Shown: positions 21,162 to 22,775 of the stretch, piece by piece
Numbering within the stretch: position 1 is the first letter of the stretch
How the letters are laid out: each line of letters opens with the position of its first letter
Source of the DNA: a virus
Length of the DNA: 41,200 nt
Reading direction: 5' to 3' (one strand)
Virus record (IMG/VR): IMGVR_UViG_3300045598_000011
Made by a program: the position numbers and the translations under genes
Notes under the pieces: generated by a model
Database searches by the model: none
Told to the model about the DNA's origin: nothing
What the model saw: the letters and a program-made list of their open reading frames with translations, nothing else

Positions 21162-22545
21162 TAGCTATTGGGAAGAGCGGGCCAAGCAAGAGAAAGCCTG
21201 GCAACTCAAACAGCTTGAAAATGACGCCGAGTTTGGCAAGTTGCTTGAAACCTACTACAACCAAGCAATCGATGATATTAGCGATAGTATCGAGAAAGAG
21301 CTTAACCGAGTAGGCAAAGACCAAGTAACGCAAATGGACGTCAAGGCGTATGAAACAAAAGCTAAGTCAATCGTGGCTGAGGCTGAGAAAATGCGGGCTA
21401 ACGGTCAAAAGGTAACGTATGCTGATTTCAGCGACCAGGTGAACCAACGGCTGAAAGTCTACAACGCTACAATGCGAATCAACCGGCTTGAACATTTGAA
21501 GTCCGAAGTTGGTCTTGATATGCTGCGAGCCGGTATCAAAGTCGATTCTAGTCTGCGAGATAAGTTAAGCGGTGATTATCAGAAAGAAGTCATTAGGCAA
21601 GCCGGTATCATGATGGATAGCGCGCAACGTTCGCCTTGGGCCGGCAAAGATGCTGCTAAAATCTTAATGGCACAGACTAACGGAGCAACGTTTAGCCAGC
21701 GATTGTGGGCTGACCAAGATGCCCTTAAAGCCAAGCTAGACCAAGTTTTAAGTGTTGGCATGATACAGGGCCAAAACCCACGTAAAATGGCTACACGGCT
21801 ACGAGAGCAGGTTAAAACAGCGGTTGGCAATCAAAGATATGTAACCGAACGATTAGCACGGACTGAGAGCGCTAGGATTCAAACGAACGTGCAGTTGGAA
21901 TCAATTAAAAAGCACGGTTATAACTATGTTCAATGGATTGCCGAGCCGAAAGCGTGTCCTGCTTGTCGAGCTATTGCAAGCCGTGATAGTGGATTCGGTG
22001 AAGGTGTGTATAAGGTTGCCAAAGTTCCAAAGATTCCAGAACACCCCAACTGCAGATGTAGCATATCCGAAACGTGGGTTGATGGCAAAGATGATAACCT
22101 TGTCGGTGGCAAGCAATCTACTAGATTAAAAATGATGCGTAGAAGTACCCATCAACTTAAGGGAAATGACCACGTGCCAACTGATTTAATGAACCAGATA
22201 CTTGGTTCGTTTATTCGGCGCGGTGGGTCCGTTCAAATGGGCAAAGAAACAGATGAGTGGCTGCGTTCTCAAGGGGCTTCAGCTTCAATTCTTGATAGTT
22301 CTACAATTTTAATTGGAACATTTGCTACTGAAATGGCAGTACGGGAAGAAGCATTTCATGCTAATCAACTAAAGCGATATGATGGTGCCCCGTCAGATGA
22401 AGAACTTATAAACATGGAAATTGAAGCGCAAATCTATTTGTTAAAGTATGCAAAAGAACACAACATGTCCTATAATGAAATTAAAGAATTAAAACGAAAT
22501 CTGAGATATTGGAAACGTAAATTAGCTGATTATAAGGGAAGGTGA
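21154..22545 (+). CDS. MuF / SPP1 gp7-family minor head protein with a ~150-aa extra C-terminal domain
   Basis: MuF core is RLARTESARIQTNVQLE...ACPACRAI...IPEHPNCRCS (ends near aa 310). Residues 311-463 lie beyond the family core. Confidence 0.85.
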   Translation: MPSSYWEERAKQEKAWQLKQLENDAEFGKLLETYYNQAIDDISDSIEKELNRVGKDQVTQMDVKAYETKAKSIVAEAEKMRANGQKVTYADFSDQVNQRLKVYNATMRINRLEHLKSEVGLDMLRAGIKVDSSLRDKLSGDYQKEVIRQAGIMMDSAQRSPWAGKDAAKILMAQTNGATFSQRLWADQDALKAKLDQVLSVGMIQGQNPRKMATRLREQVKTAVGNQRYVTERLARTESARIQTNVQLESIKKHGYNYVQWIAEPKACPACRAIASRDSGFGEGVYKVAKVPKIPEHPNCRCSISETWVDGKDDNLVGGKQSTRLKMMRRSTHQLKGNDHVPTDLMNQILGSFIRRGGSVQMGKETDEWLRSQGASASILDSSTILIGTFATEMAVREEAFHANQLKRYDGAPSDEELINMEIEAQIYLLKYAKEHNMSYNEIKELKRNLRYWKRKLADYKGR

Positions 22546-22550
22546 TTGCA

Positions 22551-22775
22551 ATGCTGAAAGTTATAGATCAATTTAAAGTGGCAGGTAAATATGCAATTAT
22601 CGTCCAAGGGGCTAGATTTATTAAATGGGGTTCGTATTTAGTTGACAAAGACAATCATAAAGTCAAAGTTCTAAGCAGTAATTTCCCGTCGGTTGAAGCA
22701 GATAAGAAAAAGATCTTAATGCTTCAAGTTGATGGTGTAGTATCTGGTGATGAATTAAAAATCGAACCGGAATAA
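22551..22775 (+). CDS. Small protein immediately downstream of the MuF extension; candidate cognate immunity protein
   Basis: 74 aa, RBS GGAAGGTGA, start 6 nt after the MuF stop. Followed by a terminator. Confidence 0.6.
   Translation: MLKVIDQFKVAGKYAIIVQGARFIKWGSYLVDKDNHKVKVLSSNFPSVEADKKKILMLQVDGVVSGDELKIEPE

Follow-up and report, generated by a model that had tools for sequence, protein, structure and literature searches.

We analysed IMG/VR virus record IMGVR_UViG_3300045598_000011, a complete viral record of about 41 kb (the window, meaning throughout the whole stretch of 41,200 nucleotides (nt)). Our subjects were the gene for a 463-amino-acid (aa) MuF (SPP1 gp7-like) minor head protein at 21154–22545 and the 74-aa gene at 22551–22775 that follows it, both on the plus strand. 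The record is a temperate Limosilactobacillus siphophage, and the two genes quite likely encode a MuF-type polymorphic toxin, or effector, and its cognate neutralising protein. Judged from sequence comparison, the polymorphic toxin/immunity reading is supported because near-identical MuF cores vary in their C-termini and the small gene co-varies with the C-terminal domain. Homologues of the domain also occur in other polymorphic toxins, both as PF15640 domains on non-MuF toxins of Bacilli and in a 1742-aa protein with an AHH nuclease. A polymorphic toxin/immunity layout had been proposed for this locus from its letters and open reading frames (ORFs); our comparisons bear out that original prediction, since no close relative has the domain without the 74-aa gene or the gene without the domain, and different C-termini are followed by different small ORFs.

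MuF was defined as a toxin-delivery carrier by Zhang et al. 2012 (PMC3482391), and MuF polymorphic toxins have been described in temperate Firmicutes phages, 20% of them with a metallopeptidase domain (Jamet et al. 2017, PMC5576092). The present locus is a clear example of this already described type of system, not a new kind of system. It resembles MuF polymorphic toxins in that it comes from a temperate Firmicutes phage, encodes its N-terminal MuF/SPP1-gp7 domain next to the portal gene, varies in the C-terminal domain, has a small gene directly 3′ of this domain and has relatives with orphan cassettes. It differs from the catalogued members in that its lineage was missed by the survey of Jamet et al. 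and its domain has no direct Pfam match.

Exchange of C-terminal regions behind a constant MuF core

The N-terminal part of the protein was recognised by three libraries: Pfam PF04233 at aa 195–304 (34.1 bits, cut-off 29.6), TIGR01641 phageSPP1_gp7 at aa 197–304 (56.8 bits, cut-off 39.65) and PHROG 115 'minor head protein' over aa 1–315 (E 1.3e-89). The last ~140 residues form an additional, confidently folded domain, in keeping with the prediction of a MuF minor head protein with an extra C-terminal domain. In SPP1, the gp7/MuF minor head protein is incorporated in the capsid at the portal.

IMG/VR was searched with the MuF core alone (aa 1–310), and extension of each match to its stop codon gave 18 loci with 94–99% identical cores (loci are referred to below by our own L numbers). 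Behind these cores, the region after residue 320 was found in four states. An identical type of 153-aa extension is present in 6 of the 18 loci, and 10 have a short tail of 21–24 residues instead, with no small gene. One phage (L022) carries a 307-aa extension with an HEFGH motif, a weak match to ATLF (an anthrax-lethal-factor-type metallopeptidase family) and a different 73-aa ORF downstream, and one (L038) carries a 232-aa ART-like extension followed by a different 94-aa ORF. By tblastn, the 74-aa gene was found in exactly the 6 domain-bearing loci and was absent from the remaining close loci. Cores of 46–57% identity are followed by further C-termini, with weak Pfam matches to Ntox24, Peptidase_M91 and the anthrax-lethal-factor-type metallopeptidase family. 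The comparison of MuF lengths that had originally been suggested shows near-identical cores with different C-termini or with none. Conservation of the domain in all MuF homologues, named at the outset as the finding that would speak for a structural part, is contradicted by the 10 of 18 close relatives without it; as a structural part of all MuF proteins, the domain is ruled out by this absence.

Borders were located by blastn of the window against these phages. The constant carrier part (aa 1–320, 21154–22113, ending ...HPNCRCSISETWVDGKDDNLVGGK) is 88–95% identical in DNA to 17 IMG/VR phages up to 22112–22114, and at this position, after ...NLVGGK, homology is lost in L009, L011, L013, L021, L022 and L038. 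The core had been predicted to end near aa 310; the junction between constant and variable parts lies instead at nt 22113–22115, aa 320/321 (...NLVGGK/Q). On the right-hand side, homology returns at 22821 in L038 and at 23169–23192 in the short-tail phages, and in L023 it is unbroken to 22826 and then returns at 23192. Because these borders differ among the short-tail phages, L038 and L023, there are two independent cassettes: the domain, small gene and terminator at 22115–22820, and a YjcQ unit at ~22827–23191.

The first of these, which comprises a linker, the effector domain, the small partner gene and the terminator, is marked as exchangeable by its blastn break-points, by a G+C content that is low over part of its length and by its lower synonymous divergence (dS). 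G+C is 0.29–0.37 from ~22300 to ~23300 vs 0.45–0.50 in the flanks. Among the phages that share the cassette, dS is 0.13 for the cassette (toxin plus small gene) vs 0.41 for the MuF core, with few alleles compared. The low value fits a cassette that has moved across diverged backbones, and the cassette seems to be younger than the backbones that carry it. Taken together with the break-points, the alignments indicate that phages swap the cassette through recombination at the ...NLVGGK junction, which is conserved.

The C-terminal domain and its relation to Tox-MPTase4

The domain had been described as belonging to no recognisable family. This stands as far as direct library matches are concerned, as aa 311–463 gave none in Pfam, PHROGs or NCBIfam. 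It does not stand for distant relatives: in an exhaustive HMMER search with the domain against 1.84 billion representatives (clusters at 50% identity), at least 215 representative relatives were found at E ≤ 0.001, 22 of them at E ≤ 1e-10, and this large clade is distantly and reproducibly related to Tox-MPTase4 (PF15640). Among the 150 matches listed, all but one reach the C-terminal end of proteins of 60–580 aa, the exception being the 1742-aa protein, in which the domain stands ahead of the AHH nuclease. Carrier domains among the 123 matches scanned were Phage_Mu_F (42), Phage_min_cap2 (22) and VG15 (10), with the AHH nuclease in one. Tox-MPTase4 was the only recurrent Pfam match of the domain itself, hit by 45 of the 123 and by 29 of 72 clade members (best 5.4e-08). 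These matches cover nearly the whole profile and score 17.7–30.5 bits against a cut-off of 25, mostly just below it, with one at 30.5; the window's domain did not reach the gathering threshold of PF15640.

The canonical family was sampled by searching 401 Bacilli genomes with PF15640, four of which had above-cut-off matches. Searched with a profile of the clade, this small set yielded the canonical PF15640 proteins with E values from 8e-07 to 1.4e-04, and EElfHakQ was aligned with HELSHYIQ and HEGYHAEQ, column for column. In the window, the counterpart of the canonical HExxHxxQ is EEAFHANQ (22345–22368; E398, E399, H402 and Q405), so that the HExxH motif of PF15640 is not present as such, its second and fifth positions being retained. 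The substitution is general in the clade: among 254 domain matches, 237 read EExxHxxQ, 2 read DExxH and none reads HExxH. Motifs shared clade-wide are RGG, D..L...GA.A, TIL, EExxHxxQ and EIEAQxxLL. In clade alignments at ~25–35% identity, E398, E399, H402, Q405 and E422 are invariant or nearly so. E422 (22417–22419), on the EIEAQ helix, is invariant in three clade alignments and is a candidate third metal ligand; it lies 20 residues from H402. In thermolysin-type gluzincins, too, the Glu follows the last residue of the motif at a distance of 20 residues. Its motifs and profile matches place the domain in a sister clade of Tox-MPTase4 that is carried by phages and has Glu in the position of the first metal-binding His.

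Like the domain studied here, Tox-MPTase4 is a small C-terminal alpha+beta domain of ~130 residues found in polymorphic toxins. Canonical members differ in having HExxHxxQ, non-MuF carriers in Bacilli and unrelated downstream ORFs of 78–133 aa, whereas the MuF-borne clade has EExxHxxQ, an EIEAQxxLL helix of its own and an almost exclusive association with MuF-type proteins. In Zhang et al. 2012 (PMC3482391), Tox-MPTase4 is given the motif F[DN], [RK], HExxH and delivery by type II, type VI and type VII secretion systems (T2SS, T6SS and T7SS), and no immunity protein is listed. Excerpts of the Zhang et al. and Jamet et al. accounts likewise contain neither the EExxH clade nor its near-exclusive association with MuF nor its partner proteins. 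At the four canonical loci (L061, L062, L063 and L066), three of the downstream ORFs share the pattern ...W.V.FE.R...G....GP...; judging from this pattern, these ORFs, which are unrelated to the phage partners, may be an undescribed immunity family of the canonical clade.

DUF4157, a zincin-like domain of contractile-injection-system toxins, also has HExxHxxQ. One clade member (P0040) matched positions 1–78 of the 79 in the eCIS_core/DUF4157 profile (PF13699), with an E value of 0.0076 that is below the cut-off. DUF4157 differs in being N-terminal in eCIS (extracellular contractile injection system) cargo, and there is no such context at this locus. A sequence-profile search of the PDB with the domain alignment returned chance matches only, and a literature search for 'EExxH' returned metal-transporter papers only.

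The AlphaFold2 model of the domain, built from 72 aligned sequences, has a predicted local distance difference test score (pLDDT) of 86.5 overall and of 93–98 from aa 340 on. Structure prediction, suggested originally for aa 311–463 and for the 74-aa protein, gave confident folds for both (pLDDT >93 over 340–463 and 92.8, respectively). Based on the model, the relatives and the PF15640 matches within the clade, we tentatively assign a folded zincin-like domain to aa 340–463 (22171–22542). Its elements follow in the order helix, strand, helix, strand, strand, helix (with EExxH), helix (with E422), helix. Iyer et al. (PMC5512222) describe a zincin core made up of an N-terminal helix and a sheet of three strands, together with the motif helix and a further helix that bears a Glu. 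We infer, from topology and profile matches and not from superposition, that the predicted topology of the domain equals this core.

The small downstream gene and related loci

The 74-aa gene starts with an ATG at 22551, 5 nt past the MuF stop codon (TGA, 22543–22545), and ends at 22775. The SD-like (Shine-Dalgarno-like) sequence AAGGGAAGGTGA lies just upstream, and an alternative GTG start at 22542 overlaps the MuF stop. Because the small gene begins only 5 nt downstream, it is probably translationally coupled to the MuF gene. It had been predicted to start 6 nt after the stop and to have its own terminator; the spacing needs correction to 5 nt, and the terminator is upheld. A terminator-like hairpin of 12 bp at 22794–22822, followed by a U-rich tail (−15 kcal/mol, z −2.44), closes the cassette on the plus strand and coincides with its right border. 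A simple terminator scan did not pick up this hairpin.

The pairing extends to distant members of the clade. In the fetched loci, a small ORF begins between −31 and +3 nt relative to the stop of each of the 37 complete or near-complete domain-bearing ORFs; these small ORFs are 68–83 aa long, apart from a 106-aa ORF and another that is cut short at 49 aa. Three toxin domains of 58–63% identity, found in a word-indexed search, are each accompanied by a 72–75-aa homologue (33–63% identical) that overlaps or abuts the stop. Among close alleles, which are few, the ratio of nonsynonymous to synonymous divergence (dN/dS) is ~0.12 for the domain and ~0.10 for the small gene, indicating purifying selection on both. 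Small proteins that accompany different sub-clades of the domain have a similar length and the N-terminal pattern (K)-I/V-I-D-x-F...V-L-V.

Scans of the 74-aa protein against Pfam, PHROGs and NCBIfam gave no match except a weak one to phrog_37318 'minor head protein' (E 4.7e-04). Its AlphaFold2 model is a six-stranded beta-barrel (pLDDT 92.8). The best fold matches were the EF-Tu-domain-II-like barrels of Pyrococcus (PF0907/Pbp11; PDB 1xe1, 4pgo and 7anu), with probabilities of 0.99–1.0 and template modelling (TM) scores of 0.64–0.68; at E 0.08–0.16 and 13–17% identity this is a fold likeness alone, with no functional link known. Its co-occurrence with the domain, its homologues, the predicted barrel and the dN/dS values make the 74-aa gene a candidate immunity or inhibitor gene.

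Related loci contain the same pair in other arrangements. In L006, the domain forms an orphan 154-aa cassette, paired with a 74-aa ORF, in a series of toxins and small ORFs behind a 575-aa MuF gene; for a phage head module, this is a textbook case of a polymorphic-toxin cassette array. On the L006 metagenome scaffold (256–8465), the orphan toxin-like ORFs number at least five; all have an ORF of 74–84 aa behind them, and two of the toxin-like ORFs are PF15644 glutamine deamidases (Tox-PL1-type). In L036 (1–4600), the MuF gene is split into three ORFs. The orphan cassettes upstream of it contain ART-like fragments and a copy of the MPTase4-like domain that starts with the MuF junction peptide LPAHPNCRC, and a small ORF accompanies each of them. 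At L033 (3532–3849) and L034 (820–1137), a frame change severs an MPTase4-like domain from MuF, the frame ending after 47 more residues, and the 68-aa downstream gene is intact. Judged by the reading frames, the toxin seems to be decaying and its putative immunity gene to have been kept.

Lactobacillus johnsonii prophage Lj928 (L058, NC_005354.1, 1489–3502) has the same gene order: MuF with the domain, a 77-aa gene, YjcQ and scaffold. RefSeq labels the 77-aa gene 'minor head protein', a name from which the PHROG 37318 label probably derives. Jamet et al. 2017 (PMC5576092) list Lj928 as 'MuF-' in their supplementary table.

In the window, a tyrosine integrase gene lies at 87–1181 on the minus strand. 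The late operon runs from the large terminase (18476–19747) through the SPP1-type portal (19686–21161) and the MuF ORF to a DUF4355 scaffold (23358–24020) and the capsid protein (24023–24853). The host is probably Limosilactobacillus mucosae, because L. mucosae DSM 13345 carries a copy 99% identical to the C-terminal domain. Among GenBank phages, a megablast search with the locus brought up no near-identical DNA. The second cassette (22827–23191), bounded by hairpins, holds a YjcQ gene at 22846–23178 (PF09639, E 5.9e-31), which is also found in Lj928 and L025. This unit is gained and lost independently of the toxin. As a part of the toxin/partner pair the YjcQ gene was rejected, as it is missing from L023, where the toxin and small gene are kept, and present in L038 behind the ART-like toxin.

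Proposed mechanism and alternative readings

We propose that the effector domain is carried in the capsid with MuF, in the manner of SPP1 gp7, and would enter the next cell with the DNA. There it would act as a metal-dependent hydrolase, probably a peptidase, that cleaves a host protein. The usual HExxH...E metal site would be replaced by E398-E399-x-x-H402...E422, in which E398, H402 and E422 would be the metal ligands and E399 the catalytic base. The 74-aa barrel would bind and block the domain in the producing cell, and also in lysogens if it is expressed there.

Several results weigh against this proposal. The replacement of the first zinc-binding His by Glu across the clade makes both peptidase activity and zinc as the metal uncertain. 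The window's own domain had no Pfam match even at E 1 (or 10), so its link to PF15640 is transitive. With the model of the domain, Foldseek retrieved no solved structure (best E 0.18, TM 0.31), and in BFVD its only significant match was a member of the same domain family. The small proteins of different sub-clades could not be joined by sequence, the hhalign probability being 11% and an iterated hidden Markov model (HMM) search giving no link. No promoter-like site was found upstream of the 74-aa gene, which leaves immunity of lysogens unsupported. Our literature search for toxicity, binding or virion data on clade members found none. We consider it plausible, at somewhat below even chances, that the MuF-borne domains are a distinct uncharacterised enzyme family with an E/H/E metal site that may prefer another metal or substrate and with small beta-barrel inhibitors of their own.

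A possible but rather unlikely alternative is that the domain is a pro-infection effector, a capsid-borne peptidase that helps the phage in the infected cell, for instance through cleavage of a defence or regulatory protein of the host. In that case the small protein would be an inhibitor or chaperone for the producer cell, with neither inter-bacterial killing nor lysogen immunity involved. The tight coupling of the small gene to a late-operon MuF gene, with no promoter-like site of its own, is what this alternative would lead one to expect. In the proposal of Jamet et al. (PMC5576092), MuF domains of mild toxicity, peptidases among them, may steer the lysis/lysogeny decision or counter defences, and Iyer et al. 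(PMC5512222) regard MuF fusions as effectors injected with DNA. However, the same slot is used by ART-like and Ntox24-like domains typical of killing toxins, the orphan cassette arrays of L006 and L036 are a hallmark of polymorphic toxin loci, and half of the near-identical phages have no domain at all, which is therefore dispensable for infection. It is less probable still that the domain, having lost the first metal-binding His, is an inactive or non-peptidase module that either serves for binding or is an enzyme using a different metal and a different substrate. The near-uniform EExxH of the clade, with no HExxH among the domain matches, and the failure of Foldseek to retrieve a solved zincin are in its favour. 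In titles and abstracts on the ZIP8/ZIP14 transporters, an HExxH to EExxH change is discussed alongside manganese transport, which is an analogy only. Against such a module, the near-invariance of E398, E399, H402, Q405 and E422 at such low overall identity argues for a working active site. Glu is, moreover, a competent metal ligand, and the spacing to E422 is that of thermolysin-type gluzincins.

A role in head assembly, with the domain as a capsid maturation or self-processing peptidase and the small protein as a minor head component, appears very improbable. It would agree with the weak phrog_37318 match and the RefSeq label of the Lj928 homologue, and MPTase domains of polyvalent phage proteins have been proposed to self-process (PMC5512222). 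Nonetheless, 10 of the 18 phages whose MuF, scaffold and neighbouring genes are 96–99% identical have neither the domain nor the small gene, and unrelated domains occupy the same slot in other phages. We found no experimental basis for the 'minor head protein' label, which looks like annotation by position. The reading we prefer remains that of a MuF-borne polymorphic toxin with a cognate neutralising protein.

MuF polymorphic toxins occur widely among prophages of Firmicutes from gut and food, and their physiological role 'remains to be established' (PMC12226406). Those studied experimentally are (p)ppApp synthetases, not peptidases (PMC12226406). Bench work has been confined to nucleotide-pyrophosphokinase members; this locus offers a compact example of the peptidase type in a harmless Limosilactobacillus host. 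The clade-wide change from His to Glu at the metal site poses a small enzymological puzzle. Sister phages with the same MuF core and either no domain or a different one are natural isogenic controls, which make delivery, the cleavage target and the question of who is protected directly testable. If the MuF-borne domains do form a distinct enzyme family with inhibitors of their own, no immunity partners of MPTase4-type toxins would have been described before these small proteins, and the domain would be a peptidase-type cargo brought into cells by phage capsids.

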